The notes beneath the pieces are model-generated. The model did not search any database. It had not been told where the DNA came from and saw only the letters and a program-made list of their open reading frames with translations. Shown here piece after piece: positions 5,445 through 39,411 of a DNA stretch of 64,000 nucleotides; within the stretch, counting starts at the first letter, position 1, and every line of letters starts with the position of its first letter. The stretch is taken from IMG/VR virus record IMGVR_UViG_2851938318_000001; one strand, written 5' to 3'. The position numbers and the translations under genes were made by a program. The stretch is from a virus (Duplodnaviria > Heunggongvirae > Uroviricota > Caudoviricetes).

Positions 5445-5499
5445 CCTGCTTCCGTATATATTTAATAAGTTACTTATTATTTATATATACAGAAGCAGG
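5445..5499. repeat. 55-bp near-perfect palindrome, copy 1 of 2
   Basis: cctgcttccgtatatatttaataagttacttattatttatatatacagaagcagg; arms contain CTGTATATAT-like half sites; centre carries the TAAGTTACTTATT motif. Confidence 0.8.
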
Positions 5500-5610
5500 C
5501 ATAACTTGTCGTCTTAGACGCCCAGAAGCTCTACACTTTGAGCCTGTTAAATTGATTAAAAACTTATGTGTAAAATAGAACGCATTAGTCAGTAGCTAAG
5601 AGATGCAATA

Positions 5611-6378
5611 ATGGACGATTTATCGGTATACGCGAGATCATTGGATAAGGCTAAATACTATGTTTACTGTCTCTATGATACAGAAGACAAGATGAAAAGA
5701 CCGTTTTACATAGGAAAAGGCAAATCGACTCGTTGTCTCGATCACATCAAGTATCCCGATGACTCTCCCAAATCCATGCGGATCAAAGAACTTTTGGCTA
5801 ATAAAAAATTAGGCATAGATATTCTTCGTCATGGTATGGATGAAACCACAGCCAAACTTGTTGAGGCGACATGCATCGACCTTATGGGGGTCGGAGAGCT
5901 TACGAATAAGGTACGAGGAAGTGGTTCCATGATGGGCAGAATATCACTGGACGCCTACCATCACTTAGTGCTGCAAGAGGAAACTGAAATTGCTCCTGAG
6001 CACGCCGGTCTTGCCTTCCTGCTAAACAGCACCTACAAGTCAGGAATGTCCGCTCTGGCATTATATGAAGCTACGCGTGGCGTATGGGCAAAGGTTCCAA
6101 GAGACGAGAATCTCAAATATGCCTACGCTACATATGGTGGGCTAATAATGGAAGTTTATCAGATTGAATGCTGGGTCAAAGCCGGTTCTCAGCAGTACTT
6201 TACAAGGGATATAGCTCTTGGCCCCGACACAAAACGTTATGAATTTGTTGGCAGAATAGCCGATGAGCATATTAGAAAACTGTATGTAGGCAAATTAATC
6301 AAGAAGCCACCAAGCTACGGTAGCCCTTTTGTGAAGGTTGGGGTGGTTAGGACTGAACATAGTGTTAGCGCGGCATAA
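5611..6378 (+). CDS. GIY-YIG domain nuclease, possible free-standing homing endonuclease
   Basis: 255 aa; N-terminus YVYCLYD...FYIGKGKSTRCLDH fits the GIY-(10-13)-YIG...R...H pattern; lone plus-strand gene between replication and partition modules. Confidence 0.55.
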   Translation: MDDLSVYARSLDKAKYYVYCLYDTEDKMKRPFYIGKGKSTRCLDHIKYPDDSPKSMRIKELLANKKLGIDILRHGMDETTAKLVEATCIDLMGVGELTNKVRGSGSMMGRISLDAYHHLVLQEETEIAPEHAGLAFLLNSTYKSGMSALALYEATRGVWAKVPRDENLKYAYATYGGLIMEVYQIECWVKAGSQQYFTRDIALGPDTKRYEFVGRIADEHIRKLYVGKLIKKPPSYGSPFVKVGVVRTEHSVSAA

Positions 6379-6430
6379 AGCTGACACTGTAGTTATGCAT
6401 TGGCGCAATGTACGCGCCAATGCATGATTT

Positions 6431-6790
6431 TTAACCTTTCTTCATCAACTCTCGTTTGATTTCATCGGTACGCATCGTGACATCGGCAGCGGTGATCGCC
6501 TCATTCAATTTCACGATGTCCTCGATTTCCTGCGGTGACTTCTCTGCCAGATGGAAAATGGCTGCTCGAATCACGTCAGAACGAGTGAACTTCTCGAAGC
6601 GAGGGATGAACTTCATCATCTCCAGCAGTTCGAAGTATTCGTCCTCCAGTGACATTGTGCGGCTTTTAATTTTCTCTTTGCCACGAGTCGGGCGTCCCTG
6701 TGGTCTGACTGGTTGGCGCAAAGGAGTTGTGTTCTTAGCCGGTGCATCAGGCTCTTTGCGCTTTGCTAGGTCACCCATTTTCATGGACAT
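6431..6790 (-). CDS. small centromere-binding partner of ParA (ribbon-helix-helix, ParG-like)
   Basis: 119 aa; basic N-terminal tail then a beta-strand/helix pattern (TMSLEDEYFELLEMM...RSDVIRAAIFHL); start overlaps the parA stop. Confidence 0.5.
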   Translation of the reverse strand: MSMKMGDLAKRKEPDAPAKNTTPLRQPVRPQGRPTRGKEKIKSRTMSLEDEYFELLEMMKFIPRFEKFTRSDVIRAAIFHLAEKSPQEIEDIVKLNEAITAADVTMRTDEIKRELMKKG

Positions 6791-7458
6791 TATTCTTCTT
6801 CCTCCAGACTCAACAGATAATCTACAAATTCTTCAAACTCGGCTTCCGCCTTTTTGTCGCGCTCGCTACCGGTCATTTCAAAGATAGAACGACCAGACTC
6901 TTCCGCATCATCATAGACGTTGCGGTTATATAGATTGACTGGCGCAGACTCGATTCCAAACGTCTCAACAATCTCTTTAGCCGCCAGAATGCGAGACACT
7001 TGTGATGGCAAAGCCGGGCACTGGTTCATGACCGCGCGGACCTTCACTTTATCGTTTACATTGCGAACATTGTCGATAATAGGATCGATGTCACGTAAAG
7101 ATTTCAAATCACGACGCTTAGGACGCAGCGGGATAATGATAACGTCAGCCATCAGCATCGCTTGTCGCTGAATTTCGGAGTCGAAGCCACCAGCATCTAC
7201 CACTACAAACTCAGCTCTACCCTGAAGCGATTTTAGGTGCTTAATGATGTCATCCTGAACGTATGCAAAAGGAATCAGCTCAAGGTCTTCGTTCTGTCGA
7301 CGGTCTTCACACCAGCTCGTTGTCGTGCGCTGAATATCTATATCGGTAATATAAACCTTCTTCTTCTTTTTGACTTTCAGGCAAACGGCAATTTGCTGGG
7401 CAACGGTGGATTTGCCAGGCCCGCCCTTTGTGCCGCCAACCACAAAGATCTTGGTCAT
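6790..7458 (-). CDS. parA: ParA-family partition ATPase (small, type Ib)
   Basis: 222 aa; deviant Walker A GGTKGGPGKST; second motif VVVDAGG. Confidence 0.8.
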   Translation of the reverse strand: MTKIFVVGGTKGGPGKSTVAQQIAVCLKVKKKKKVYITDIDIQRTTTSWCEDRRQNEDLELIPFAYVQDDIIKHLKSLQGRAEFVVVDAGGFDSEIQRQAMLMADVIIIPLRPKRRDLKSLRDIDPIIDNVRNVNDKVKVRAVMNQCPALPSQVSRILAAKEIVETFGIESAPVNLYNRNVYDDAEESGRSIFEMTGSERDKKAEAEFEEFVDYLLSLEEEE

Positions 7459-7633
7459 TGGAGAGTTCCCTTTGCGTATATAATTATCGTCTGAAACAAC
7501 TTGTTTTCTTATATGTGATATAGCCTAAATGCCTACGGCTGCGGTGTAAAGGTTAAATGGTAGGTTGTGATTAACAATTTGAACCGCCCCGGAAATCCTG
7601 GAGACTAAACTCCCTGAGAAAGAGGTAAACAGG

Positions 7634-7960
7634 ATGACTAAAAATACTCGTTTTTCCCCCGAAGTCCGTCAGCGGGCGATTCGTATGGTTCTGGAAAGTC
7701 AGGATGAATATGACTCACAGTGGGCGGCAATTTGTTCCATTGCCCCAAAGATTGGCTGTACGCCGGAGACTCTGCGTGTCTGGGTTCGCCAGCATGAGCG
7801 GGATACCGGGGGCGGTGATGGTGGGCTCACCAGCGCTGAACGTCAGCGTCTGAAAGAGCTGGAACGTGAAAATCGTGAACTGCGCCGCAGTAACGATATC
7901 CTTCGCCAGGCTTCCGCTTATTTTGCGAAGGCGGAGTTCGACCGCCTCTGGAAAAAATGA
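7634..7960 (+). CDS. IS3-family transposase OrfA (HTH)
   Basis: 108 aa; A-run at the orfA/orfB overlap consistent with -1 frameshifting. Confidence 0.85.
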
Positions 7961-8847
7961 TGCCACTGCTGGATAAGCTGCGTGAGCAGTACGGGGTCGG
8001 ACCGGTATGCAGCGAACTGCATATTGCCCCGTCAACGTATTACCATTGTCAGCAACAGCGACATCATCCGGATAAACGCAGTGCCCGTGCGCAGCACGAC
8101 GACTGGCTGAAGAGAGAGATACAGCGCGTATACGATGAAAATCATCAGGTGTACGGTGTGCGTAAAGTCTGGCGTCAGTTGTTACGGGAAGGAATCAGGG
8201 TGGCCAGATGTACAGTGGCACGTCTCATGGCGGTTATGGGACTTGCCGGTGTTCTCCGGGGTAAAAAGGTCCGTACGACCATCAGCCGGAAAGCCGTTGC
8301 CGCAGGCGACCGCGTAAACCGTCAGTTCGTGGCAGAACGACCTGACCAGCTGTGGGTGGCTGATTTTACTTACGTCAGCACATGGCAGGGCTTCGTCTAT
8401 GTGGCGTTTATCATTGATGTGTTTGCCGGATACATCGTGGGGTGGCGGGTCTCATCGTCTATGGAAACGACATTCGTGCTGGATGCGCTGGAGCAGGCGT
8501 TGTGGGCCCGTCGTCCGTCTGGCACCATCCATCACAGCGATAAAGGCTCTCAGTATGTGTCACTGGCCTATACGGAGCGACTAAAAGAAGCCGGATTACT
8601 GGCATCAACAGGGAGTACAGGCGACTCGTATGACAACGCGATGGCTGAGAGCATCAATGGTCTTTACAAAGCGGAGGTAATACACCGTAAGAGCTGGAAA
8701 AACCGTGCAGAAGTGGAACTGGCCACACTAACGTGGGTGGACTGGTATAACAATCGACGATTGCTGGGAAGGCTGGGCCATACTCCTCCGGCAGAAGCAG
8801 AAAAAGCTTATTATGCTTCCATCGGAAACGATGATCTGGCAGCCTGA
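7957..8847 (+). CDS. IS3-family transposase OrfB (DDE catalytic domain)
   Basis: 296-aa ORF in the -1 frame relative to OrfA. Confidence 0.85.
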
Positions 8848-9089
8848 GTTCACAGATAAAACACTCTCCAGGAAACCCGGGGCGGTTCAATTGGCAATCA
8901 TAGCTTGTATTTGTCTGTTGAAAAAAGTAACAATGACCTCTATATTACAAGTACGGTGATATGCCGTACACAATTTGATAATGCACACGTAATGGGCTAT
9001 AGCCTTTTAAAGTAATTTTTGAGTCGAAAACTCAGTTTGAACAGAGGAGATTGATGGCCTTCCTACATCACGGCCATCAGGAGGAATAC

Positions 9090-9359: not shown

Positions 9360-9366
9360 TTTACTC

Positions 9367-10308: not shown

Positions 10309-10309
10309 A

Positions 10310-11541: not shown

Positions 11542-14500
11542 TCAGTTACTTGTTGCCCCAACAGTACCTGCAAATTTCAGCCATTGACCTGACGGACTTC
11601 TATTACTACGGTAGTGATAAACGAGGATTGCGTTTGTAATCCCACCATAGTCAGCTTTGTGTGACGTCGTTAAACGAATTGTATAATCACCGTTAGGTAG
11701 ATTAAAAACTTCGATTATAGATTCTGCTAATTCTACAGCACCAAATCCCGTTATATTGTTGATACTGCCAGCATTGAATCCCATAGCATCGCCAAAGCCA
11801 ATCCAATAACTTTTGCTAAACGCCCCATTTGATTTTAGGTGGCTAATGAATGCGGACAAGCTCATGCCCATATCCCCACCTGAAACAGAGGAAGTTCGCA
11901 CAGTCATGCTTGGAAGAGCACTGCTCTTCACATAGGAACTTAGAAGGTTTGTTACCTCTGTTTTCGTGTAAGCATTAACATTAGCCGCAGTCAAAGTTAT
12001 ATCGGCAGAGCCATCAAACGCCACACCAGCAATTTTCCTTGCTGTCTGCAATTTTGTGGCGGTTGCGGCATTACCAGTAGTGTTCTGGTTCCCATCTGCA
12101 TTCACACCTGGGATGCTGTCTTTTTTAGTATATATCTGAGTCCAGTCCTCTTCGAACCCATAGCCATCACGTGATGAACGGTAATACAATCCACCATTTT
12201 TATAATGCGCTCGGATTTGGAGAGTCCGACAACTACCTACGCCTGTATAAAAATTTGCAACGATATAAGAATCCCCGGAGCGTGTAACATTATACGCACC
12301 TGATTCGGCATTCCACGGGACCGCACCACTAGTATCGGCATAAGTTCCAGTAGCGCGTCGAGCAAAAGCAGATACATTTGCAGCTGTTAGTGTTATATCA
12401 GCAGAACCATCAAAAGACACGCCGCTTATTTTTCTAGCAGTTTGCAACTTCGTAGCTGTTGAAGCATTACCGTTCAAGCTGCCATTTACGCCACCAGTAA
12501 CATTTAGTCCATTACCAATGGACACAGCACCGCTGGTATTGTTAATTGTAATCGGTCGCAAACCGTTCCATGAACCTAATGTGTCTCCTGATGCTGTTAG
12601 CATGAAATATGTGTTCGACCCATCATTACGGATAAAGAACCCAAAGCTACCGTAAGCAATGCGGAAACCATTTGCATATTTTGAAATGATCTCGCCAGAA
12701 GATGTCAAACCTCCAGATAATGTCCCACCGGTAAGAGGTAATGCACCAACGTCAGATGCTGTTGGTTTATTTTTCGTGTTATATACTCTTCGCCATCCTG
12801 GAGAATAATCTGTGCCATTAAATACATAGATAAACTCCGCATTAGTGAGAGCACCAGAGACACTCGTCGTTGTGGCCGTTGTTATACGGATCGTATAATT
12901 GTTTGAGCTACTACCGTTATTAAATACCTCTATAACAGCTCCTGCCAATGGAATAACGCCACAACCAGTTTCACTATTTGGTATGGTTGCACTATTGGCA
13001 TAGGCCCACGCACATCGAGCAATCCATGACTTTGTGTTAAATGCTCCATTATTTTGCAATAACGTCACTAACTGTGCTGTTGTTATTGCTCCGCCATTAC
13101 TTCCTGTAGTTAACCAACCAGTAGGAGATGCCGGGCAACCTATATTTGCTGGCGATAAGGAAATATTTGCCGAGCCGTCAAACGACACCCCATTAATAGT
13201 ACGCGCAGTCTGCAACTTCGTAGCAGTAGCCGCGTTGCCCGTTGTATTCTGATTACCAGTCGTATTAACACCTGGCAAATTAATATTCGCAGTACCATCA
13301 AAGCTCACGCCGCCGATAGTTCTTGCCGTCTGAAGTTTTGTAGCAGTTGCAGCATTACCAGTGGTGTTCTGATTACCCGTAGTATTTACACCTGGAAGGT
13401 TGATATTTGCAGAACCGTCGAAACCAACTCCACCGATAGATCTTGCCGTCTGCAATTTCGTTGCTGTACTTGCATTACCATTTAATGTTCCGGTGATCCC
13501 ACCAGTAACAGACAACGGACCTGAAACTGTTCCTCCGGTTGTTGGCAGTGCACCAATATCTAACGGCGTCGGTTTCTGATGTGTGCTATACATCGTATAA
13601 ACAACACCATCGGTAACGCTGGAAGGCTTACTCGCTGAATATGTTGGCGATGTATAAATAGAAACTGTCGCATTTGCAGTACAATCCCAATGGATATTTA
13701 CACTCGTCGCATAATTGCCAATCTCAACGTAAATATCATATGTATCGCCGGATGTGTTGATCCAGGCGAAATTCGTTAATCCGACAGCTGTACGCTTCCA
13801 CAAAGCCCCGGTAATTCCTTTGGGGTTTCCATTGCCTGCTCGTAGAACCAGTTCTGAAATGCCTGCCTGATGTGGGGAACCGACGTTGTAACCAGCGCCA
13901 CCAATCAATGCGATGTAAACGATGGAACTCGCTTGTGGCATGGTAACCGTAGCCAGTTTGAACCACCCAGCCCCGCCAGAGAAAGACATCGTTACTGAAT
14001 TTAAAGTACCAATATCTTTCGGCGTTAATGTTATATCCGCAGTCAATGCTTTTCCGTTAACTTTTCGGTTAGATGGCACCCTGCTATTCGCATTGTCATT
14101 GGCTGCTTTAACTGCTTTTGGCGTTGCGGCCAGCGATTCACTGGTGCTGTCGACAGCACTGCTAAGTTTCACAACACCTTTGGTGGTAAGGCTTGCGTCT
14201 TCCATCGCAACTGCACCGGCAATCTCTTCAGCACGATCAGCGGCAGCTTCCGCACGGGTCGCAGCGGATTCAGCAGCAGTTTTGCTCTGAGATGCAGCTG
14301 TCGCACTGCCTGCCGCCTCTGTTGCCTTCGTGGATGCCGTTGAAGCACTGCTCTTCGCTGCTGATGCCTGCTTGGTCGCCTCATCTTTTGAAGCGGATGC
14401 TGAGGTGGCTGATGCAGACGCAGAACTTGCAGATTCAGCAGCTGCCGCCTTAGAGGAAGCAGCATTGTCTTCTGAGGTCTTTGCATTTGTTTCAGAGGTT

Positions 14501-15567
14501 TTTGCTGCCGATGCTGAATTTTTAGCAGCTGTAGCCTGACTCGTCGCCTCTGTCGCTTTTGTGGTAGCTGTTGTCGCGGATGACAATGCGCTATCCGCAG
14601 ATTTTCCTGCCGCTGTTGCACTTGATGAAGCACTATCCGCACTTGCTGAGGCTGCACTTGCTGACGCTTCTGCCACAGATTTCGAACTGTTTGCAGACGA
14701 TGCACTCTGTTCGGCTGCCGTTTCAGATGCTTTTGCGTTTGTCTCTGACGTTTTTGCTGCCTTAGAGGAATTTGCAGCTTCTGTTGCCGATGATGCAGCC
14801 GCGTTTGCACTCGATGAAGCGTTAGTCTCTGATGCTTTGGCTGCATCCTTAGATGCAGAGGCACTGGACGCAGATATTGCAGCCTCCGATGCTTTGGTCG
14901 ATGCTACAGACGCTGATTCTGCTGCCGCTTCTTTGGCGGCCTCTGCGTTCGTTTCAGATCTTTTCGCAGCAGTTGCACTCGCACTTGCAGCACTTTGTGA
15001 GGATGCCGCAGCGGATGCACTTTGAGACGCTTGAGATGCTTTTTCTCCAGCGGTATTGGCGCTTTCTGCCGCTGCGGCAGCACTGGCCGCCGCCTCACGA
15101 GCTTTGTCGCCAGCAGCATCAATCGCGTCAGTGTTATTTTTATACCACTCAACGTTTTCGTTGTGCTCGTTGACGATCTGCATTAGCGGCTTAACGGTCA
15201 CTTCTGTACCGTCTTCACGCTCGATTGTCACCTCATCCAGAGCAGTCAACCAACTGCGCATGGACTTTGAATCAGCCGACATACGCGACATTAGTGCAGT
15301 AAAGCGCGCGCTAAACTGTGTTAAGTCGCCTTCATAGGTCGTAATGATTCGGCACGGAACTTCAGACTGAGTTTCGCCGGTATAAGGTTCTGAGAGAACA
15401 ATGTTCGTATCACTGGTTACGCGCTTGATCTCATACAGCTTGTTGTCGGGGCCAATGACGATCATCCCCGGCAACACACCATTAGCTGTTACGTTCCAGG
15501 CTGTTCCAACACCAACGAGAGTATTGCTACCCTGTGTAAATGTGATAGTACCTTCCCTGTACCACAT
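11542..15567 (-). CDS. side tail fiber protein
   Basis: 1341 aa; long Ala/Ser-rich low-complexity region; three tandem tail-fiber repeats GNAATATKLQTARxIGGVSFDGxANINLPGVNTTGNQNTT. Confidence 0.75.
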   Translation of the reverse strand: MWYREGTITFTQGSNTLVGVGTAWNVTANGVLPGMIVIGPDNKLYEIKRVTSDTNIVLSEPYTGETQSEVPCRIITTYEGDLTQFSARFTALMSRMSADSKSMRSWLTALDEVTIEREDGTEVTVKPLMQIVNEHNENVEWYKNNTDAIDAAGDKAREAAASAAAAAESANTAGEKASQASQSASAAASSQSAASASATAAKRSETNAEAAKEAAAESASVASTKASEAAISASSASASKDAAKASETNASSSANAAASSATEAANSSKAAKTSETNAKASETAAEQSASSANSSKSVAEASASAASASADSASSSATAAGKSADSALSSATTATTKATEATSQATAAKNSASAAKTSETNAKTSEDNAASSKAAAAESASSASASATSASASKDEATKQASAAKSSASTASTKATEAAGSATAASQSKTAAESAATRAEAAADRAEEIAGAVAMEDASLTTKGVVKLSSAVDSTSESLAATPKAVKAANDNANSRVPSNRKVNGKALTADITLTPKDIGTLNSVTMSFSGGAGWFKLATVTMPQASSIVYIALIGGAGYNVGSPHQAGISELVLRAGNGNPKGITGALWKRTAVGLTNFAWINTSGDTYDIYVEIGNYATSVNIHWDCTANATVSIYTSPTYSASKPSSVTDGVVYTMYSTHQKPTPLDIGALPTTGGTVSGPLSVTGGITGTLNGNASTATKLQTARSIGGVGFDGSANINLPGVNTTGNQNTTGNAATATKLQTARTIGGVSFDGTANINLPGVNTTGNQNTTGNAATATKLQTARTINGVSFDGSANISLSPANIGCPASPTGWLTTGSNGGAITTAQLVTLLQNNGAFNTKSWIARCAWAYANSATIPNSETGCGVIPLAGAVIEVFNNGSSSNNYTIRITTATTTSVSGALTNAEFIYVFNGTDYSPGWRRVYNTKNKPTASDVGALPLTGGTLSGGLTSSGEIISKYANGFRIAYGSFGFFIRNDGSNTYFMLTASGDTLGSWNGLRPITINNTSGAVSIGNGLNVTGGVNGSLNGNASTATKLQTARKISGVSFDGSADITLTAANVSAFARRATGTYADTSGAVPWNAESGAYNVTRSGDSYIVANFYTGVGSCRTLQIRAHYKNGGLYYRSSRDGYGFEEDWTQIYTKKDSIPGVNADGNQNTTGNAATATKLQTARKIAGVAFDGSADITLTAANVNAYTKTEVTNLLSSYVKSSALPSMTVRTSSVSGGDMGMSLSAFISHLKSNGAFSKSYWIGFGDAMGFNAGSINNITGFGAVELAESIIEVFNLPNGDYTIRLTTSHKADYGGITNAILVYHYRSNRSPSGQWLKFAGTVGATSN

Positions 15568-15660: not shown

Positions 15661-18600
15661 TCACAGAAGGCCAATTCTCACTCGGAGGACGTTGTTATCG
15701 TCATAAACGTCAATCCGCTGACCATTTATGACCAATCGCCCATTGCCGCCGCTATTACCGTTAATCTCAAGCGTTCCATTTTTGCCGAACCGCCATCCAG
15801 ATCTACCGCTAACAAAATTGGTAGATTGCAGATCGCCTACTTTTGCATTGGTGATTGTGCCATCCTTGATATACGCACCATTCATATAGGCGATACTGTT
15901 TTCGATAACAAATGGCGTGGTGATCTTCCCGTTAACAGAGTTGACCAAACCAAATCTGTCCGCCTGCACCAAAAACTGAGAAAGACCGGTGGTGTCGATA
16001 CCAAGCGCAATACCGGCAACATACTTCTGCCCTCCGCTCGTTGAAGTCTCCATTTTCAACGTCCACGCGGTTGAGACTTTTTTGTTGGTATCAGCAATGG
16101 CTGTTGCCTGCTGTTGAATTGTCGCGGTATTTCCATCCACCTCTGCTTTCAGAGTATCGATTCGCCCACTTAGAGCATTATCTGCCTGCGTTCTCGCTGT
16201 CGTTTCAGTTGTGACCGCCGCAGAAATGTTGGCTGCTGTTTGAGACTCTAAGTTTGTGATTTGAGTCGCCAGTGCCGCATCTTGCTCTGTACGCGTTTTC
16301 GTTTCGGTTGCTACAGCCGCTTTAATATCCTCTTTGTATTGAGAGGTCAGCTTGGTGATCTGAGATGACAACGCCGAGTCAGCATCAGTTCGAGCCTGCG
16401 TTTCAACTGCAACGGCCGCACTAATATCTTTCGCAGTCTGTGCTTTTAAACTTGAAACCTCTTTTGTTAAAGCGGTATCACCATCTGCACGAGCCGTTGT
16501 TTCTCTGGCAAGAGATGCCTCGAGATCATTAGCTTTTGCTGTAAGAGACGTAATCTGAGTGGACAATGCACTATCGGCATCAGTCCTTGCCTTTGTCTCT
16601 ACAGCAACCGCTGCGGCAATGTCAGTTCCGGTCTGCGCCCGCAGGATGTTAATTTCTCGTGAGAGCGCCTCGTCAGCACTTGCTCTAGCCTCCTGCTCCT
16701 GAGTGATGGCGGCGGATATATCACCGTCAACCTTTGCTTGAAGCTGGTTTATTTGTTTGGCTAAGGCAGAGTCCCCGCTTGCTCGAGCCTCCTGCTCACT
16801 ACGTATTGCAGCAGAAATATCATCATCAACCTTTGCCTGAAGTTGGGTGATCTGGCTTGCCAGAGCCGAATCTTCCGTTGCTCGGGCTTCTTGCTCCTCC
16901 TTAATAGCTGCGACGATATCGTTGCTTACTTTCGACTCAAGCTGAGTGATCTGTGTCGTCAGAGCTTCATCGGCAGATGTACGAGCCTCCTGCTCTGTAC
17001 TAATCGCCGCGCTGATATCTCCTTCAAACTTAGATTGCAGCTGAGTGACACGCTTTGCCAACGCTTCATCGCCATCGGCACGAGCGGTGGACTCTTCCAG
17101 AATACTGGCCTTAATGTCTTCGCCAATTTCTACGCGAATTTCCTCAACCTTCGTGGCCATTGCAGACATATCATCAGCAAAGGTTTTCTGTGTTGTTGCG
17201 ATCTTCGCGTTATTGACCATCTGCTTGTGCTGGTCTTCATCTTGACGAAGAGCCAGGTCAATGTTTGTTTTGGCCAACGCCTCAATGTTCGTAGTCAGCT
17301 CTGCACTTGCACGATCGACCTCTGCAACCGTCTTTTTCATTTCTTCAACGGCAGCGGAGCTTTCCTCTACCGTTGACTGCAACACTTCCAGTTGTTTAGC
17401 GTTTGCAGCATCGCCTTCAACACGAGCCTCGCTTTCCTTAGCAATAAGAGCCGCCGCTTCATCTCTTGCAGCCTTTATTGCCTCGACTGTATTAGCGAGA
17501 GCTTTATCGTGTTCAGATACGGCGTTTTCGATTTCAACAATTGCAGCATCAGTAGCATCAATTTTTTCAAACGCTTCATTGACCTTGTCGATCGTTGCCG
17601 AAACCTCACCTTTAAGCTCGGTTTGTGCGTTCTCCAAAGCATCGCTACGCTCGTTGAATTTTATTTCAAAATCCGCGAGGTTATCGCTGAACTGCTTATC
17701 TAATTCAGCTATATCTTCCTTAACGTCGTTTACCGCCCCCTCCAAAGATTCGACGCTCTGGTTGATATGCTCATTTAACTCGTCAACTGCTTCTTGAGAG
17801 GCTTTGCTGTTGATGTCCTCAAGCAGAGCCTGACCAAGCTCGGAAGATGTAATTTTGCCAGTCAGGAACGACAGTACATCGCGAGTTGTCGCCTCTGTAC
17901 CCAAGTTTGAGTTCGGAGGACTTAACATACCTCGCTTGTTCGATGCTCGAACCCAGTAATACCACGTTTCACTATCCCCAAGACCAGCATGTGTAAAGGT
18001 GGTGCTTGCAGACTCTGCGATCAGTTTCGCCGTATCCAGATTGTTGGTCTGGGATGCGTAAACATTAATGTGATCAAGGTCTACCGAATCTGGATTAACC
18101 CAATTCAGTATCACATTACGATAGTCTCCAACGGCCGTTAATGACGTTGGTGCATCCGGCGGTGTCATTGTGCCCAGCACCTGATAAACGGTACTGATAA
18201 TTTCTGTTTTTTTACCGTTGAATGAAACCGCATACAGTTGGAAGTCGTAGCGTCCATTCTCCGCGACATTAACGATTTCGTATTGCTCTTCGGTTACACG
18301 CGCCGATTGCCAGTTCGATACATTGTTTTCATCAGAACGTCGCCAACTGATCCAATACTCTGGAGATTTCCCTTCCCATGTTGCAGTCAGTTTTACTGAC
18401 AGGTTGCCCGGGCTTGAGAGATAAGTCCCTTCAGTGATTTGCAGATTAGATGGCTTGGAGTAAGTTGGGTCCAATACCGTCGTATTCTGCGGGATCAGCG
18501 TTGCACCATTGTCGATTGCCTCATATTTAGACGGATTGTTCTCAACAGCGGTGATGTCAAAGCTACCCGGCGTTTCCCCCTGCGCGATGTTAACGATGCG

Positions 18601-19530: not shown

Positions 19531-19572
19531 TGAACCGCCCCGGGTTTCCTGGAGAGTGTTTTATCTGTGAAC

Positions 19573-20463
19573 TCAGGCTGCCAGATCATCGTTTCCGATG
19601 GAAGCATAATAAGCTTTTTCTGCTTCTGCCGGAGGAGTATGGCCCAGCCTTCCCAGCAATCGTCGATTGTTATACCAGTCCACCCACGTTAGTGTGGCCA
19701 GTTCCACTTCTGCACGGTTTTTCCAGCTCTTACGGTGTATTACCTCCGCTTTGTAAAGACCATTGATGCTCTCAGCCATCGCGTTGTCATACGAGTCGCC
19801 TGTACTCCCTGTTGATGCCAGTAATCCGGCTTCTTTTAGTCGCTCCGTATAGGCCAGTGACACATACTGAGAGCCTTTATCGCTGTGATGGATGGTGCCA
19901 GACGGACGACGGGCCCACAACGCCTGCTCCAGCGCATCCAGCACGAATGTCGTTTCCATAGACGATGAGACCCGCCACCCCACGATGTATCCGGCAAACA
20001 CATCAATGATAAACGCCACATAGACGAAGCCCTGCCATGTGCTGACGTAAGTAAAATCAGCCACCCACAGCTGGTCAGGTCGTTCTGCCACGAACTGACG
20101 GTTTACGCGGTCGCCTGCGGCAACGGCTTTCCGGCTGATGGTCGTACGGACCTTTTTACCCCGGAGAACACCGGCAAGTCCCATAACCGCCATGAGACGT
20201 GCCACTGTACATCTGGCCACCCTGATTCCTTCCCGTAACAACTGACGCCAGACTTTACGCACACCGTACACCTGATGATTTTCATCGTATACGCGCTGTA
20301 TCTCTCTCTTCAGCCAGTCGTCGTGCTGCGCACGGGCACTGCGTTTATCCGGATGATGTCGCTGTTGCTGACAATGGTAATACGTTGACGGGGCAATATG
20401 CAGTTCGCTGCATACCGGTCCGACCCCGTACTGCTCACGCAGCTTATCCAGCAGTGGCATCAT
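19573..20463 (-). CDS. IS3-family transposase OrfB
   Basis: 296-aa ORF identical to the copy-1 OrfB. Confidence 0.85.
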
Positions 20464-20786
20464 TTTTTCCAGAGGCGGTCGAACTCCGCCTTCGCAAAAT
20501 AAGCGGAAGCCTGGCGAAGGATATCGTTACTGCGGCGCAGTTCACGATTTTCACGTTCCAGCTCTTTCAGACGCTGACGTTCAGCGCTGGTGAGCCCACC
20601 ATCACCGCCCCCGGTATCCCGCTCATGCTGGCGAACCCAGACACGCAGAGTCTCCGGCGTACAGCCAATCTTTGGGGCAATGGAACAAATTGCCGCCCAC
20701 TGTGAGTCATATTCATCCTGACTTTCCAGAACCATACGAATCGCCCGCTGACGGACTTCGGGGGAAAAACGAGTATTTTTAGTCAT
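20460..20786 (-). CDS. IS3-family transposase OrfA
   Basis: 108-aa ORF identical to the copy-1 OrfA. Confidence 0.85.
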
Positions 20787-20840
20787 CCTGTTTACCTCTT
20801 TCTCAGGGAGTTTAGTCTCCAGGATTTCCGGGGCGGTTCA

Positions 20841-27200: not shown

Positions 27201-28828
27201 CTGCCAGCACCAACTACCCCCATGATCCCTGCTCGCATCAGTTTGAACGCAACCATCGCGGCCACGACCTTACCGAGATTAATTACCAGCTCTTGGTTCT
27301 TTGCTAACCATTGAGCAAGCTGACGCAACCCATCGATTGCCGTCGTTAACCCCGAACCTAAAGAATTGGCAAACGAAATCCCTTCGGCGCTATTCATGAT
27401 TGAAGCCAGTTCTTTCATCCCCTTTGATAGAGAATCCAGATATCCGGCCTGACCAACTCGATCAGCAAATAACGTGAATGACGTCTGAAGTTGCGCCAGC
27501 GCACCTGTGTAGGTTTGCATCATGTCTTTCGCTGCGTTCTCGTTCTCCGCACGCAGACCAACAAACATCAGAGACAACGCCTGTTTTGCCTCAACCGTAC
27601 CGCTGGCAACAGCTTTAGTCAGTTCCCCCATAGTGATGCCTGCGGCATCTGCCATTGCCTGCATCGCGTTAGGAACGGCTTCACCTAATTGCTGACGTAG
27701 CTCTTCCATTGACACAACGCCCTTACCGGACATCTGCTGAACGGCCACAGCCGCACGTTTCAACAGCTCACTATCACCACCAAAACGAGCAACGGAGTCC
27801 ACCAGCGCCTTCAGAGAACCATCGGTTGGATCTAAGCCAGCAGAACGAAACTTCACGAAGGAATCTGTTAACGCCTGCATCGCGAACGGCGCATTTTGAG
27901 CCATGTCTACGATGTACTTCATATCATCAGCGGCAGCCTGGCCAGGGTTGGACTTCTCCTTATTCAACCCTCGAAGCATCACCCGCATACGTTCCATTTC
28001 GGCCGCAGCTTCAACAATAGGCTTCTGCCACCCAAACATGATGTCAGTAACCGTTCTGGCTGCATCTCCGATCTCGCCAAGCAGGAAAATGTTGCCACGA
28101 AGGCCAGAGAACATACCTCCTTCGTTATTTTTACCGCTGTGACCAGAAGCGCCGCTACGCTGCCCGCTACCACCATCGCCACTTCCAGATGTACGAACGC
28201 GTACCGGCTTGCTAATCAGTTGCTGACGTCCGATAACTTCGTCCATCTGCTCACGAACCTTTTTCAGTCCCTCGGCAGCCTGACTCGTTGTGACCCCCCA
28301 ATTACTGAGTCGCTTCGTCGTGGTATTAAGGCGCGTATTCATGCCACTCACGGACGCAGATGCTTCTTTGACCTCCGTTCCAAAGCGGCTTGCGCTTTTG
28401 CTTGCATAGGTCGCCCAATCAGAGAAATCATTTAGCTCTGATTGCACTTTACGTAATGACGCAGTGAGTTTATCTACTGAAGAAGTTGTCGTATCGACGC
28501 GCTCAATCAGGGCTTTAAGACCAGAATTGAGGCTGGTGATGTTGCCACGCATTTTACGCGTAGCATCTGAAGCAAGCTCAAAACCGGCAGCTACATCCTG
28601 TAGTTTATCTGCCGTAGAATCGAGCTTGCTTTCCAGAACGCCAATGATACGGGCGACCGAACCCAAAGAGCGTTCAAAGGTTTGGATTTTTTGAGCAGGC
28701 TTTGTTACCTGCTCACCAAATCGAGTAAGCAGTTTCCCCGCACGATCGATTGACGCTGTAAACTGTTTGTCTTCCAGCGACAGGATAAACTCTACGTTTT
28801 GTGACATTCCCTTGTCATCCTCTGCCAA
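24248..28828 (-). CDS. tail tape measure protein
   Basis: 1526 aa; long alpha-helical and Gly/Ala-rich hydrophobic segments; position downstream of the G/G-T chaperone genes. Confidence 0.85.
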   Translation of the reverse strand: MAEDDKGMSQNVEFILSLEDKQFTASIDRAGKLLTRFGEQVTKPAQKIQTFERSLGSVARIIGVLESKLDSTADKLQDVAAGFELASDATRKMRGNITSLNSGLKALIERVDTTTSSVDKLTASLRKVQSELNDFSDWATYASKSASRFGTEVKEASASVSGMNTRLNTTTKRLSNWGVTTSQAAEGLKKVREQMDEVIGRQQLISKPVRVRTSGSGDGGSGQRSGASGHSGKNNEGGMFSGLRGNIFLLGEIGDAARTVTDIMFGWQKPIVEAAAEMERMRVMLRGLNKEKSNPGQAAADDMKYIVDMAQNAPFAMQALTDSFVKFRSAGLDPTDGSLKALVDSVARFGGDSELLKRAAVAVQQMSGKGVVSMEELRQQLGEAVPNAMQAMADAAGITMGELTKAVASGTVEAKQALSLMFVGLRAENENAAKDMMQTYTGALAQLQTSFTLFADRVGQAGYLDSLSKGMKELASIMNSAEGISFANSLGSGLTTAIDGLRQLAQWLAKNQELVINLGKVVAAMVAFKLMRAGIMGVVGAGSQMVSTFATMATAIQTPFNLGATAVTRFNRAARMGLAPIPSLIFAIRGAITGLKGAFAGLTAFIAANPIGFVFTAAMTAVAGLITYMTMLRSETSKVVDEIRKIPEAMTAAKRAQMAEYKARLEQQITQKEQELKSGEKVVYGPGMAGTTVKINHDERKRIENELNELRKKRDETNETIARGDLAVAKRLAKETAESQIEKILEENRDFAATFVKARQEALEKIQKIKDDGSLSDDEKNKLLAPLRETVNKSYLEPAQKLVDSLSSRKNATEKQIATLNDQLEKAKKEGNTEQIQKLQGSIRGYQEHLEVVAQELTQAEFKRDNAAKSGNGLVSINGDVLGLGTTDKAAQKALAQYMRNQMDSATYQRTLPDGTPMMDFEGKPIIGPKQLKTQLNLQKASSASSLEKMSDEERAAAIAALTKAREQDAAAAEKAAQRSANASQRAAKKEQAAQQKLAAGYQKALDKADQLMGQMGESSKATVSFDQSLRDTTKSLTDLANAVPNEFITQEMIDKAKKRLEDLKNATPEYREMFNRRNVEQMISTWAPESDSIISAGYTPSREEKVADFEDTYNRNLKALIELRDKASDPKVVALYTKKINQLIAAGNTALIKETGTATQKLALEYENLAEQIESTWTDLFSGLTDVLTDFVINGKMSFSSLSQSILKDITNMVVKSQITLPLMNMLGMGTTAAGSSQSGNLLTGVASAVANQGVRMGNTVNGDKSVGEATKETSSSVTGLGQTTQQTTSAIGTATNAIGSWVSGLFDSTEAKDAETKAVKDSIFSMQNLSSVTGALSAAFAMLGANASGSGNKWLSFGATVASGLVSAWAGGGFDSVTSSSAKTTTSSVADGTKGIPAIPKFANGGIFGKDGVIPLRAYQKGGIANSPQLALFGEGSMNEAYVPLPDGRTIPVTLSTDGMSGGGNVLSPVSIEINVHSDGSTTESGDTESIWNNAAQRMKAIALETIAQEKRPGGSLNPNTQRN

Positions 28829-34813: not shown

Positions 34814-34838
34814 CTATCAATTCCCTTTGATTTAGATG

Positions 34839-35726: not shown

Positions 35727-35747
35727 AAAAATTCCCTTTGTTACTTA

Positions 35748-37322: not shown

Positions 37323-37348
37323 TTGAATAACCTTAGATAATTACTTAC

Positions 37349-38605
37349 CTATCGAGAACCACCAAGAATAACACGGTTTTTGACTGGATACCTACGATGT
37401 ACTGGATAGCCCAATGCGTCTGCACTATGCTCAATGCCACCTGTCTTATCCATATCTCGTGTTCCAGGCTTGTAGATGACCTTTTCCAGTGAATCAATCA
37501 AATGCTTGCACTTCGGATCGATATACAGCCGGATATCTCCAGATGCGGTCATCAGCATTCGGTTAACAGCATTAACACGATCCGCAATTGGCGGGTGCTT
37601 TTTCGAATAATCGACACGTAAGAATCCCTTCTCTTTGAATATGTCTACGTCAGACTCCCCGCGAGCATGTTGGCGATAAGCACCTGCCGGATCTGGAAAT
37701 ACCGTTATCTGTGATTTCCAGCGCCAGAAGCGCCTCTCAAGCTCATCACAAACCTCTGCCGTGTTAGAGGAAAAGAGCACCAATTCATCAATTGCCCATA
37801 GCTCACCATTTGGCTGAGGTTGCAAAATTACGGAAGACATCGGGTCAATGTTGAAGTCCTGTCCTACCCATATAGGCAACCGAGGGTTGAACTGAAGCGG
37901 TTTAACATGCACGTTTCGATCGAACGGGTAGTAAACGCGCCCGGACATATTTTCAAAGCTGGCCAGGTACTCCTGAGCGAACGATTTAGGGTCCATATCG
38001 TTCTTAGCAGCTTCAATTTCCGCCGTAGGCACAAACGGCGAATCAGCAGTTACAAACTGCCAGCTCTTCCACTGTCCCTTTCTTTGCAGCTCTACGTTCT
38101 GGCCTATAGTCCACAGTTTGTGAAATTCCGAGAAGCCTTTTGGCGTACCAATAATCAGTGCACCGCCGCGTGTCGATGAAAGAGTAGGTCGTAACACCTT
38201 GTACCAGGTGTCAGCCTTCATATCCTGAAATTCATCAAGCACTACAAAATGCAACGCTACGCCGCGCAGAGTGTCAGGTTTATCAGCTCCTTTGAGGGCG
38301 ATCTCCGAACCGTTCTTCAACACGATTGTCATCGTGGTGTCGTTCTTTTTCCTAACCCACTTACGGGGCAGAACTTCCTGTAGATCGTCCCACAAAATCT
38401 GGCGAGCCATCTGGTAAGTAGGAGCGACATACCAGACCCTTTGCTTTTTTTCCTTTGCCGCCGCACGAATAATAGTGGAGATCGACAACCGGGATTTTCC
38501 CCAGCGTCGACCAGCACAAACAACTTTAAATCGATGCGGAGACTGGAAGACTTTCATCTGTCCAGAATGCAGTTGCACAAGACTGAGCGAGGACGGGATT
38601 GCCAT
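37349..38605 (-). CDS. terminase large subunit
   Basis: 418 aa; Walker A-like GRRWGKS, Walker B-like FVVLDEFQD; start overlaps the small-subunit stop. Confidence 0.8.
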   Translation of the reverse strand: MAIPSSLSLVQLHSGQMKVFQSPHRFKVVCAGRRWGKSRLSISTIIRAAAKEKKQRVWYVAPTYQMARQILWDDLQEVLPRKWVRKKNDTTMTIVLKNGSEIALKGADKPDTLRGVALHFVVLDEFQDMKADTWYKVLRPTLSSTRGGALIIGTPKGFSEFHKLWTIGQNVELQRKGQWKSWQFVTADSPFVPTAEIEAAKNDMDPKSFAQEYLASFENMSGRVYYPFDRNVHVKPLQFNPRLPIWVGQDFNIDPMSSVILQPQPNGELWAIDELVLFSSNTAEVCDELERRFWRWKSQITVFPDPAGAYRQHARGESDVDIFKEKGFLRVDYSKKHPPIADRVNAVNRMLMTASGDIRLYIDPKCKHLIDSLEKVIYKPGTRDMDKTGGIEHSADALGYPVHRRYPVKNRVILGGSR

Positions 38606-39237
38606 TATTCGTCCTCCCCTTCACTTCCATCATCTGTCGCATCAAATTCGCTTAGAGCTTCTTCTTCCAACGTCTCAAGCAATTCGTCATCGATGATTTC
38701 AGGCTCGTCGTCTTCCTGACGTAATTTCGCCACCTGGGAAGGCGTAAGCTCACCAAATACCAGGTTCGGAATTTCTTCCTCGTCATTTTCCGCATGATCC
38801 ATGCCCAATGCTTTGGACGAAACTTCAAAGCATTTTGCAAGGGTATTACTGGCTCTCTGTAAGCTCTTGAGAGAACCCTCAATCGCCCCTAAAGGCTTAC
38901 CCTCACGTTTGGCCGTAGTGACTTCGACCATCACCATCTGCCCCAACGCATACGCCCAGCCGTCATAACGTGTACGACGTTCTTCTATCTTTTCCGCACG
39001 GGCTTTAGCGCGAAGCTCTGCGTCAGATTTAAGAGACTCACGAACCATCTTCCCAACAGAGTCCGCGCCTTTCTCTAATCCTCGCTTTTTGAAATGTCTG
39101 GAGAGTGTTTCACGACGAATGCCGTACTCTTCCTCCAGCTTTGAGAGTGTATATTCGCCTGACGTCCATTTGGCTTCAGCTTCGGCCCACTCCGCTGGTG
39201 TCAGGCGAGTTTTTACCTCGTCTTTTTCGACAGTCAT
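38605..39237 (-). CDS. terminase small subunit (putative)
   Basis: 210 aa; N-terminal helix-turn-helix-like region and highly acidic C-terminus. Confidence 0.5.
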   Translation of the reverse strand: MTVEKDEVKTRLTPAEWAEAEAKWTSGEYTLSKLEEEYGIRRETLSRHFKKRGLEKGADSVGKMVRESLKSDAELRAKARAEKIEERRTRYDGWAYALGQMVMVEVTTAKREGKPLGAIEGSLKSLQRASNTLAKCFEVSSKALGMDHAENDEEEIPNLVFGELTPSQVAKLRQEDDEPEIIDDELLETLEEEALSEFDATDDGSEGEDE

Positions 39238-39354
39238 AGATCCCTCTAAAACACACAGAGCGCGTCCATGCGCTCTAAAACAACTTGTTTACTGCATCTG
39301 CTAACCAACTTGTTTTCTGGTGTGTCTAATTAGGTCTGGGCATGTCTTACTAAG

Positions 39355-39411
39355 CCTGCTTCTGTATATATATTTAATAAGTTACTTATTATTTATATAT
39401 ACAGAAGCAGG
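39355..39411. repeat. 57-bp palindrome, copy 2 of 2
   Basis: cctgcttctgtatatatatttaataagttacttattatttatatatacagaagcagg; nearly identical to 5445..5499. Confidence 0.8.

Follow-up and report, generated by a model that had tools for sequence, protein, structure and literature searches.

Palindromes and Their Gene Neighborhood

The DNA analyzed here (the window, 64,000 nucleotides of a Caudoviricetes virus, IMG/VR record IMGVR_UViG_2851938318_000001) carries two long palindromes, P1 and P2 (Table 1). Both were located where the first-pass annotation had reported near-identical long palindromes, and the gene context that it gave for each was borne out by open reading frames and protein-family annotation; its division of the palindromes into arms and center was approximate. 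P1 and P2 share a 45-nt core that is 100% identical (5455–5499 and 39367–39411), and the arms of P1 contain a single C/A mismatch on the plus strand. The arm CCTGCTTCYGTATATAT occurs four times when up to 3 mismatches are allowed, against 0.21 occurrences expected, a count reached in 0 of 100 shuffles. The center of the palindrome is asymmetric.

The GIY-YIG gene next to P1 is inverted relative to the operons in the window and points away from the palindrome. The slot that it occupies, bounded by the par operon and P1, is variable and takes any of at least 17 alternative cargoes. A fragment consisting of the GIY-YIG gene plus P1 was also found captured on an IncF plasmid. Homologs of the small par genes in the related phage-plasmid Cyrano are expressed in lysogens (PMC9928086). 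P2 lies approximately 120 nt upstream of terS, and the AAACAAsTTGTTT sequence found between them is a separate dispersed palindromic motif, with nine copies upstream of operons.

Table 1. Coordinates of the palindromes and surrounding features in the window.
Feature	Position	Strand	Description
Primase	1941–3194	−	Follows DnaB-like helicase, operon downstream of P1
DnaB-like helicase	3204–4544	−	Follows 249-aa ORF, operon downstream of P1
249-aa ORF (rep249; phrog_2500, unknown function)	4588–5337	−	First gene of operon downstream of P1
Extended P1 element	~5422–5527	−	Outer helix TTCTGG (5422–5427)/CCAGAA (5522–5527) around inner hairpin and U-tract
P1 U-rich tract (UCUUUUAAAAG)	5434–5444	−	Abuts hairpin 3′ side on sense strand
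P1 inner palindrome/hairpin	5445–5499	− (sense)	CCTGCTTCTGTATATATAAATAATAAGTAACTTATTAAATATATACGGAAGCAGG; 55 nt
255-aa LEM-3-like GIY-YIG gene	5611–6378	+	Pfam PF22945, 30.1 bits
Small par operon	6431–7458	−	ParA, 222 aa (6790–7458); 119-aa partner (6431–6790); unit upstream of P1
terL	37349–38605	−	Start of packaging/late operon downstream of P2, with terS
terS	38605–39237	−	Start of packaging/late operon downstream of P2, with terL
P2-terS interval	39256–39318	−	Two AAACAAsTTGTTT motifs (39274–39293, 39299–39318)
Small canonical terminator-like hairpin with U-run	39256–39277	−	Between P2 and terS
Extended P2 element	39333–39433	−	Outer helix GGTCTGGG (39333–39340)/CCCAGACC (39426–39433) and partly complementary linkers
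P2 inner palindrome/hairpin	39355–39411	− (sense)	57 nt, perfect arms
Operon upstream of P2	39436–42627	−	Two ParB_N proteins, ABC-type ATPase, 296-aa ATPase, 88-aa ORF
Canonical SOS box (TACTGTATATACATACAGTA)	58832–58851		Before umuD-like gene; sole canonical box in window

A Third Copy and Conservation Among Phage-Plasmids

The window is 100% identical to the Escherichia coli plasmid pRM9131-1, a phage-plasmid of the SSU5/pHCM2 type. On this source replicon the palindromes, first described as twins, have a third copy (P3) at positions 28000–28054 of the plasmid record, equivalent to ~70.5 kb in window coordinates (6.5 kb past the window), between a Dam-like methylase gene and small-ORF/RNase H genes. 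On the circular 117-kb record the three copies and repA are spread out, lying at 0, 28, 59, and 93 kb. Each copy separates two operons transcribed in the same direction, and its polarity with respect to transcription is always the same.

The first-pass annotation had suggested looking for the palindrome at module junctions in related phages. Hundreds of relatives carry it in fixed positions between genes; only at P1 does it border a hypervariable cargo slot. Among 127 pattern-matched instances there were three fixed sites, all between co-directional operons and in one polarity. In protein-anchored locus sets built without the pattern (80 loci per site), the palindrome was recovered upstream of the rep249 homolog (P1) in 78 loci, upstream of terS (P2) in 71 and at the P3 site in 68. 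P1, P2, and P3 are one family of conserved, co-oriented intergenic hairpins specific to phage-plasmids of the SSU5/pHCM2/pMT1 type.

Element length ranges from 51 to 57 nt, with arm-to-arm spacing shifting by up to 6 bp. Stem cells among distinct haplotypes comprised 337 Watson-Crick pairs, 20 G·U and 8 C·A in the sense strand, and 7 others; at P3 the G·U cells did not outnumber the C·A cells (4 vs. 5), and the hairpin there was on average more stable in antisense. Double-sided compensatory changes were observed at stem positions 5, 6, 8, and 9. Formal covariation in the lower stem was modest (3 double-change pairs against 1.0 ± 0.9 after shuffling; 25 of 500 shuffles reached the observed value) because the arm sequence itself is conserved across three paralogous sites and several genera. 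Some clade-wide mismatches are uncompensated (A6·A in E. coli P2; G6·A and C8·A in Klebsiella P2). Among distant relatives, two (L371 and L372) have arms that differ in sequence yet are still complementary, one (L207) has a canonical terminator, CAGAGCACGGCTCTG followed by T7, in the P2 position upstream of terS, and others (L364–370) carry a canonical terminator, AGAGATTCAGGCAC..GTGCCTTAATCTCT followed by GTTTTT, after the methylase in the P3 position. Plasmid pMT1 has kept a perfect P2 without the ParA/119-aa pair, rep249, the helicase or the methylase.

RNA Folding, U-Tracts and Expression Across P1

Folding energy, one of the checks proposed at first pass, indicated strong hairpins at the palindrome cores (−23 to −34 kcal/mol, z −6.8 to −9.5), with values of −30.2 kcal/mol (z −8.6) for the minus-strand RNA of P1 and of −33.9 (minus) and −34.0 (plus) kcal/mol for P2. 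Each palindrome moreover sits at the heart of a longer, imperfect one of ~100 nt that is closed by TCTGG...CCAGA, and these outer motifs (GTCTGGGAG/CTCCCAGACC) are conserved in sequence. Extended sense forms fold at −42 to −51 kcal/mol: −42.5 kcal/mol (z −7.3) for P1 (5415–5535, minus strand) and −51.3 kcal/mol (z −10.4) for P2, whose 50-nt extended arms are 76% complementary. Flank complementarity had z below −2 in 28 of 35 distinct P2 sequences; at P1 it was weakly supported statistically (mean z −0.3), and the TCTGG motif upstream of P1 is kept beside many different cargo genes.

The sense-strand 9-nt tails of P1 contain a mean of 5.5 U (minimum 4) in 44 distinct sequences vs. 4.1 in antisense, and those of P3 contain 5.1 vs. 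3.0. The sense tail of P2 is U-poor (2.9 of 9), its antisense tail being slightly richer. A simple terminator scanner called neither P1 nor P2.

Published RNA-seq of Cyrano/pLF82 in strain LF82 (PMC9928086, S1 Table) covers the P1 homolog. The co-directional genes CYRAN_28–30 read at log2 5.2–10.8 and CYRAN_31, across P1 and 194 nt downstream, at log2 2.3–4.2. The fall from CYRAN_30 to CYRAN_31 amounts to 2.9–7.9 log2 units (~8- to 230-fold) in every condition; these are per-gene abundances in a relative, and a repressor roadblock or RNA decay would look alike.

Possible Functions of the Hairpins

The hairpins are most likely fairly ordinary genome punctuation, with transcripts stopped or processed between operons. 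More specifically, P1–P3 may be factor-independent, terminator-type RNA hairpins that insulate operons, a reading to which we give roughly even chances. A GC-clamped, AT-rich stem of ~26 bp would form in the transcript, and at P1 and P3 the U-tract that follows would let RNA polymerase terminate without a factor, keeping transcription of genes active in the lysogen out of the lytic operon that lies downstream. If polymerase reads through, the RNA would also include the 3′ side of the TCTGG/CCAGA outer helix and could adopt a double-stranded fold of ~100 nt arranged like lambda tI/sib. With its extended helix and U-poor tail, P2 may serve chiefly as a weak terminator, as a processing site, or to stabilize RNA 3′ ends. 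Of the earlier suggestion of bidirectional terminators or insulators, the terminator/insulator part is therefore the best supported, but P1 and P3 look unidirectional because their U-tract is on the sense strand only.

In favor of this reading are the strong folding of the hairpins, the three fixed and co-oriented sites, recovered also in the pattern-free locus sets, the sense-strand U-tracts at P1 and P3, and the expression drop across Cyrano P1. Distant clades with canonical terminators where P2 and P3 would lie, and the perfect P2 that pMT1 has kept although it lacks several neighboring-operon genes, also speak for it, as do stem changes that are mostly of G·U type or compensatory and the still complementary arms of L371 and L372. 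The variable length would likewise be tolerable for a hairpin, but not for a protein bridging two half-sites on B-DNA. Against termination stand the poor sense U-tract of P2 and the failure of the simple scanner to detect the sites, an arm sequence conserved well beyond the needs of a generic terminator, the uncompensated clade-wide mismatches, the missing G·U bias and greater antisense stability at P3, and, in the window, an adjoining upstream gene (GIY-YIG) that faces away from P1. In addition, a single-stranded DNA hairpin of the coding strand would give the same strand asymmetry.

Overlapping with termination rather than excluding it, the ~26-bp hairpin or its ~45-bp extended form could be an RNase III site or a 3′-exonuclease barrier that parts operon mRNAs. 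Long, near-perfect double-stranded stems, an outer helix beyond the U-tract as in lambda sib, the same hairpin at several intergenic sites as in T7, and the absence of a U-tract at P2, where the extended helix is strongest (−51 kcal/mol) and flank complementarity has z below −2 in 28 of 35 sequences, would all fit. Cleavage is, however, only predicted, the U-tracts of P1 and P3 favor termination, and the drop across P1, roughly 100-fold, exceeds what processing alone usually yields, so that as the main function we regard processing as quite improbable. A DNA-level site, at which a protein of the phage or plasmid binds the arms and the TCTGG/CCAGA outer motifs, or the DNA extrudes a cruciform, appears unlikely to us. 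Such a site might be a dispersed N15-like centromere, a repressor roadblock, or an AT-rich unwinding element with flanking initiator sites (a lytic origin). Conservation of the arm sequence beyond pairing at three sites across genera, together with the outer motifs, is compatible with it, as are the position of P1 beside the par and helicase/primase operons and the spread of the three copies and repA around the circle; a roadblock would also produce the RNA-seq drop, and a dimeric binder the symmetric compensatory changes. However, arm-to-arm spacing varies by up to 6 bp, polarity is conserved and a symmetric DNA site would have no use for U-tracts on the sense strand, pMT1 has a perfect P2 without the small par pair, rep249 and helicase, a GC-skew switch is absent at P2, AAACAAsTTGTTT is a better operator candidate, and central asymmetry and bulges disfavor cruciform extrusion. 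The regulator binding sites proposed at first pass, as half-sites on B-DNA, are disfavored because of the variable element length. As for LexA, whose half-sites the arms had been said to resemble, they do contain CTGTATATAT, and Cyrano is induced 39-fold by ciprofloxacin. Yet the half-sites lie ~37–41 bp apart rather than as CTGT-N8-ACAG, many orthologs have C in place of the T of CTG (C..G in 33 of 127, C..A in 3 of 127), and the canonical box stands elsewhere, leaving a LexA operator at the palindromes with next to no likelihood.

The palindromes had also been viewed as recombination hot spots defining module junctions, which is half right. Gene conversion does take place between the copies, as an incidental result of their being identical in sequence: the center of P1 in the window is 95–100% P2-like, against 76% identity to the orthologous Cyrano P1, and arm alleles A (CTTC/GAAG) and B (CGTC/GACG) are mixed at Klebsiella P2 and P3. 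P1 also marks the constant border of a hot spot for cargo insertion, with 17 upstream contexts vs. one downstream, and homology to Cyrano, SSU5, and CMS-2020a SCU-175 stops within 10 bp of its edge. These features, and the capture on an IncF plasmid, might suggest that the palindromes are primarily linkers offering portable homology for module exchange and cargo capture. We find this very unlikely, however: synteny is conserved on both sides of P2 and P3, no P1×P2 rearrangement (inversion/deletion, swapped flanks) occurred among the 127 instances, any repeated sequence is expected to undergo gene conversion, and U-tracts, polarity, and the expression drop would be left unexplained. We consider it more improbable still that P2 is a packaging recognition or cleavage (cos or pac) site. 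Its distance from terS is typical of one, and the linear GenBank record of virion-derived SSU5 opens and closes inside P2 (...GACTTATTA / AATATATACGG...) without loss or duplication. But the genome holds three near-identical copies, and the break falls where P2 ceases to match the reverse complement of SSU5 P1, as expected if an assembler breaks at a repeat. The identical opening of Cyrano is not independent evidence, since the Cyrano sequence is that of plasmid pLF82, annotated anew and apparently re-oriented to follow SSU5. TerL matches Terminase_6N and Terminase_3, families of mostly headful packagers, and IMG/VR contigs of approximately genome length do not have ends at P2.

Comparison With Known Systems

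Set beside the LexA SOS box (TACTG(TA)5CAGTA), the family shares CTGTATATAT/ATATATACAG in its arms, but differs in half-site distance, in the variable CTG and in having the canonical box at a separate position. Like the module-boundary linkers of mosaic (lambdoid) phages, P1 is short and conserved and borders a hypervariable slot, with exchange between copies; P2 and P3, in contrast, are not mosaic junctions, and the element has a clear transcript-level anatomy. The sopC-like centromere sites of N15, which are short palindromes bound by SopB, are similarly few and lie between genes at points of functional importance in a low-copy phage-plasmid, here with one copy by the par operon, whereas variable spacing, fixed polarity, U-tracts, and the retention of P2 in pMT1 without the small par system set the present family apart. 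T7 RNase III sites also form a family of similar hairpins, placed between genes at several points of a phage genome that is transcribed in one direction, but have a characteristic internal loop and proven cleavage, while the stems here are AT-rich and near-perfect and two of three are followed by a U-tract. Lambda tI/sib likewise combines a hairpin and U-tract with flanks that pair only in read-through RNA to form long double-stranded RNA; it is present once rather than in three copies and has no sequence similarity to the family, for which RNase III cleavage and antitermination are only candidate activities. With Rho-independent terminators the family has in common a GC-clamped hairpin with a sense-strand U-tract (P1 and P3), a location at the 3′ end of co-directional operons and, at Cyrano P1, a large downstream drop in RNA. 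It departs from them in its ~26-bp, AT-rich stems with internal loops, in the lack of a good U-tract at P2, and in the use of one sequence, nested in an outer helix, at three loci across genera.

Three Copies of a Long Palindrome at Fixed Sites

Both palindromes of the window, here called P1 and P2, are present where the first-pass annotation had placed them, and their near-identity was confirmed, with a 45-nt core identical in both (coordinates of these and other features are collected in the table). With up to three mismatches allowed, the window contains their 17-nt arm four times; 0.21 occurrences are expected, and 0 shuffles reached four. The window is 100% identical to the E. coli RM9131 plasmid pRM9131-1 (117,123 bp, IncFIB, non-mobilizable), and this source replicon carries a third near-identical copy outside the window, P3, flanked by a phage N6-adenine methyltransferase gene and by a small ORF and rnhA. 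The palindromes described as twins are triplets in the replicon. Close relatives of the window are the phage-plasmids CMS-2020a, PhiR41_1 and Cyrano (= pLF82), with Salmonella phage SSU5 more distant.

A pattern scan of IMG/VR returned at least 120 stretches, and when instances were classed by neighbouring genes, three site classes corresponding to P1, P2 and P3 were found among the matches listed. All three have the same polarity once oriented by the direction of the flanking operon. In a protein-anchored retrieval, which is independent of the palindrome pattern, the palindrome was recovered upstream of rep249 (a 249-aa ORF, the first gene of the helicase/primase operon) in 78 of 80 loci, upstream of terS in 71/80 and downstream of the methylase in 68/80, in line with the expectation that it would recur in related phages. 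The gene contexts originally assigned also held: P1 has the 249-aa ORF/DnaB-like helicase/primase operon on one side and a LEM-3-like GIY-YIG gene on the other, and P2 separates an operon of two ParB_N proteins, ABC-type ATPases and an 88-aa ORF from terS/terL. The P2 region was found in 831 plasmid records (Klebsiella 341, Escherichia 236, Enterobacter 92, Yersinia 62, Salmonella 49, and others), and a scan with one genome per bacterial species returned only 7 palindromes, all at P1 or P2 sites of SSU5-like elements. In the 100 kb examined of pMT1 from Yersinia pestis (NZ_CP033694.1, retrieved as L382/L383), a perfect P2 is kept upstream of terS, and the P1 and P3 contexts are missing: rep249, the helicase, the small parA and the methylase have been lost, and caf1, phospholipase D, IS100 and a P1-type ParAB are found as replacement content.

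Palindromes, repeats and motifs (window coordinates unless a record is named)
Feature	Position	Size	Remarks
P1	5445-5499	55 nt	single C/A arm mismatch on + strand; site: par operon or cargo / palindrome / rep249-helicase-primase
P2	39355-39411	57 nt	arms perfect; site: 88-aa ORF / palindrome / terS
P3	pRM9131-1 (NZ_CP028430.1, record L130) 28000-28054		6.5 kb past right window end; site: Dam-like methylase / palindrome / small ORF, RNase H
Canonical SOS box TACTGTATATACATACAGTA	58832-58851		directly upstream of umuD-like ORF
UmuD-like (S24 peptidase-type) ORF	58426-58815	129 aa	- strand
AAACAA-N-TTGTTT motif	4560-4585, 7490-7515, 39274-39293, 39299-39318, 46927-46948, 50019-50040, 51685-51710, 52169-52194, 54945-54970		
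Small canonical terminator-like hairpin + U-run (TAGAGCGCATGGACGCGCTCTG TGTGTTTTAG)	39256-39277		- strand
Two IS3-family copies	7580-8889 and 19531-20840	1310 bp	100% identical, mutually inverted, bracket 10.6 kb
ALIL frameshift pseudoknot matches	7915-8031 and 20389-20505		in IS copies
Direct repeats	11998-13401, 14398-14788, 16672-17067	120 nt, about 67 nt, 99 nt	60-75% identity; between IS copies
Direct repeat	49934-49999 / 50476-50541	66 nt	94% identical
Four-member repeat family	50018, 50734, 52172, 54948	69 nt	

Hairpin Anatomy and Folding

Within the core clade the arms, CCTGCTTCYGTATA / TATACRGAAGCAGG, are nearly invariant, while the centre is AT-rich, variable and asymmetric, and the whole element measures 51-57 nt. 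RNA folding, proposed earlier as a check, gave -23 to -34 kcal/mol for the cores (z -6.8 to -9.5). On the sense strand, which is the minus strand for both P1 and P2, the folds reached -30.2 and -33.9 kcal/mol, respectively (z about -8.6 to -8.7), and have the stable, GC-containing stem of an intrinsic terminator, with stem base CCUGCUUC/GAAGCAGG. Around each core a larger, imperfect palindrome is closed by TCTGG(G)...(C)CCAGA, and the extended sense-strand folds came to -42.5 (P1), -51.3 (P2) and -41.6 kcal/mol (P3). Complementarity of the flanks was significant at P2, where z fell below -2 for 28 of the 35 distinct sequences, and in 15/38 at P3; at P1 it was weak. The heptamer CCCAGAC occurs 7 times in the window against about 8 copies expected (an estimate from sequence length), and is therefore a local feature of the elements rather than a dispersed motif. 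No known RNA family in Rfam matched the palindromes, and the sole matches were to ALIL in the IS copies.

Evidence for Proposed Transcript-Level Termination

We consider the chances about even that P1, P2 and P3 act on transcripts as terminators or insulators. This is the best-supported part of the earlier proposal, with U-tracts at P1 and P3 and an expression drop across the P1 of Cyrano, but it fits the U-poor P2 less well. Each site lies downstream of a unit reading towards it: P2 follows the 88-aa ORF, P3 the methylase, and P1, in most relatives, either the par operon or a cargo gene of the same direction. In this window only read-through from the par operon would reach P1, because the adjacent GIY-YIG gene is inverted. 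The sense tail of P1, UCUUUUAAA, has a mean of 5.5 U of 9 in 44 variants (antisense 4.1) and that of P3, CUGUUUUGU, 5.1 U of 9 (antisense 3.0); the tail of P2, CUUAGUAAG, has just 2.9 U of 9 and lacks a proper U-tract. A consensus terminator scanner made no call at P1 or P2. In distant clades that have a decayed palindrome, the corresponding positions are taken by canonical terminators.

Per-gene transcript abundance is available for a relative, Cyrano/pLF82, from the LF82 transcriptome (five conditions in duplicate; PMC9928086). There, CYRAN_28-30, a co-directional set comprising ParA, its partner and a cargo gene, have log2 values of 5.2-10.8, and CYRAN_31, a homologue of rep249 that lies 194 nt further downstream on the other side of P1, has 2.3-4.2 (PMC9928086). 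From CYRAN_30 to CYRAN_31 this per-gene abundance falls by 2.9-7.9 log2 units, a drop which a roadblock or RNA decay would mimic. Across P2 the drop in the same data was just 0.1-1.8 log2, at low expression, and P3 was uninformative due to low expression.

Most of the variation within the stems is such as an RNA helix can tolerate. Counting each distinct haplotype once, 337 cells are Watson-Crick, 20 are G·U and 8 C·A in the sense strand, and 7 are of other kinds. A ratio of G·U to C·A of 81 to 3 in the pattern-matched set (among the matches listed) shrinks to 20 to 8 in the unbiased sets when distinct haplotypes are counted, and the bias is absent at P3, which leaves moderate, not strong, evidence of an RNA-strand signature; a hairpin formed in single-stranded coding-strand DNA would, moreover, show equal asymmetries. 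Double-sided changes were seen at stem positions 5, 6, 8 and 9, and in very distant relatives the arms differ yet remain complementary (GCCTTGCTCCCATA/TATGGGAGCAAGGC and GCCGTGTTCCCATA/TATCGGAGCACGGC). Covariation in the lower stem was modest: 3 pairs showed double changes where shuffles gave 1.0±0.9, and 3 was reached in 25 of 500 shuffles. With RNAalifold, run on MAFFT alignments of the 137-nt elements, only the lower stem came out, since the AT-rich centre and the flanks align poorly. Clade-wide uncompensated mismatches at P2 speak against termination, as does an arm sequence conservation that exceeds the needs of a plain terminator.

Alternative Roles for the Palindromes

The conserved arms could instead be read in DNA, as a protein-binding or cruciform site, which we regard as unlikely: the 6-bp length range is more than a rigid protein spanning two half-sites on B-DNA could accommodate, and is irrelevant for a hairpin. 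The likeness to LexA half-sites pointed out earlier does not extend to an operator. CTG and CAG lie about 37-41 bp apart, against the 16-bp palindrome CTGT-N8-ACAG, and they are not conserved (C..G 33, U..G 81, U..A 10 and C..A 3 of 127 among the matches listed); the sole CTGT-N8-ACAG match in the window, at 58834-58849, belongs to a canonical box elsewhere. A type Ib partition centromere fits poorly, with P1 alone near the par operon and no repeat arrays, and a centromere of the small ParA system is weakened by pMT1, which has its perfect P2 but neither the 222-aa ParA nor the 119-aa partner in homologous form. For a replication origin, an AT-rich centre between inverted conserved arms would be compatible, but pMT1 keeps P2 without rep249 or the helicase; no GC-skew switch was found at P2. 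With regard to telomere resolution, all plasmid records examined were deposited as circular, and the palindrome is internal and present in three copies.

That P2 is a cos site is very improbable. The linear SSU5 record (NC_018843.1) does open inside P2, 9 nt off the palindrome centre (retrieved loci L124:1-20 and L125:2460-2500), and the Cyrano record opens likewise. However, the SSU5 break coincides with the point where P2 stops matching the reverse complement of SSU5's own P1, a repeat boundary, and probably reflects an assembly interrupted at a repeat or hairpin; the Cyrano opening is not independent, as Cyrano is the re-annotated plasmid pLF82. The site is also not unique, with three copies per replicon, and TerL belongs to Terminase_6N/Terminase_3. 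At the RNA level, the hairpins could serve processing rather than termination, and the predicted stems at P1 and P2 would be long enough for RNase III, which needs at least about 20 bp of dsRNA; we hold this to be very unlikely.

Sequence Exchange and a Cargo Slot at P1

The palindrome copies do exchange sequence. The centre of the window's P1 matches the P2 of the window at 95% identity and the P2 of Cyrano at 100%, but the orthologous Cyrano P1 at only 76%, whereas the neighbouring replication genes are 97% identical between window and Cyrano. In Klebsiella, the arm alleles CTTC/GAAG and CGTC/GACG are mixed at P2 and P3, with a matched pair in one retrieved locus (L337). P1 has 17 upstream contexts against a single downstream one and forms the constant border of a cargo hot spot, so the suggestion that the palindromes define module junctions applies to P1, in a mosaic sense, but not to P2 and P3, where synteny extends on both sides. 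Swapped flanks indicating P1xP2 inversion or deletion were absent from the 127 instances among the matches listed. We read recombination as a consequence of the repeated sequence and not as the purpose of the palindromes.

The free-standing GIY-YIG nuclease gene (LEM-3-like, 5611-6378, plus strand) is cargo adjoining P1 in inverted orientation, and it adjoins P1 on backbones with rep249 100% and 92% identical to that of the window. One possibility is a mobile homing-type endonuclease that co-converted the neighbouring palindrome when it inserted. A fragment in NZ_CP062831.1 (locus L128, about 19.5-20.8 kb) comprises a 255-aa GIY-YIG gene, the P1 palindrome and the first part of rep249; it is truncated by IS3 and lies among IS elements of an IncF conjugative plasmid, which marks it as a captured piece of an SSU5-like element.

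Other Repeats and Motifs in the Window

About nine copies of a palindromic motif, AGAAAACAAsTTGTTT, with the core AAACAA-N-TTGTTT, lie a short way before operon starts, among them those of the helicase, parA and terS, and the motif may serve a global phage regulator as promoter or operator. Directly upstream of the terS start, after two AAACAAGTTG motifs, the small hairpin with a U-run may be an attenuator or antitermination target of the late operon. The 66-nt repeat and the 69-nt family carry the AAACAnnTTGTTTTCT motif and look like repeated promoter/leader cassettes before short genes. The IS3-family copies are annotated as IS1203 in the source plasmid, which has at least three more, and one of them directly adjoins the parA promoter region; the direct-repeat families between them are probably internally repetitive coding sequence. 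The UmuD-like ORF behind its LexA box is probably a real SOS-regulated gene of the phage-plasmid. Cyrano, a relative of the window element, is ciprofloxacin-induced.

Implications for Phage-Plasmids

P1, P2 and P3 are best filed as long, sequence-conserved, nested terminator-type hairpins, three per replicon, in one phage-plasmid family; in the literature on SSU5/pHCM2 we found no description of them. Phage-plasmids of the SSU5/pHCM2/pMT1 type are common in Enterobacterales, including the Yersinia pestis virulence plasmid pMT1/pFra, and published papers report that they can carry resistance genes. If the hairpins insulate, lytic replication and packaging operons would stay silent while plasmid-maintenance and cargo genes are expressed, which would offer a simple handle on how such elements unite plasmid and phage lifestyles and would explain the build-up of accessory genes immediately before P1. 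As family markers, and as landmarks for transcription-unit annotation, the three conserved sites are handy, and exchange between them illustrates how repeated terminators can seed mosaicism. Current ideas are not overturned; the annotation of a widespread element is refined.

Given that the arms and the outer TCTGG/CCAGA helix are strictly conserved in sequence at P1, P2 and P3, the hairpins may also be recognised switches, not just passive terminators, which open three operon boundaries on induction, although we think this distinctly unlikely. A phage-encoded antiterminator, or an RNA- or cruciform-binding protein, would then open all three boundaries together on induction; alternatively, RNase III would process the extended read-through helix at each of them. 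Such a switch would tie the replication, late and nucleotide-metabolism operons to the decision between lysogeny and lysis and would amount to a three-site sib/nut-like regulon in a phage-plasmid. The U-rich tracts of P1 and P3 sit between the inner stem and the outer helix, in the 3' internal loop, a layout which we take to resemble that of lambda tI/sib.
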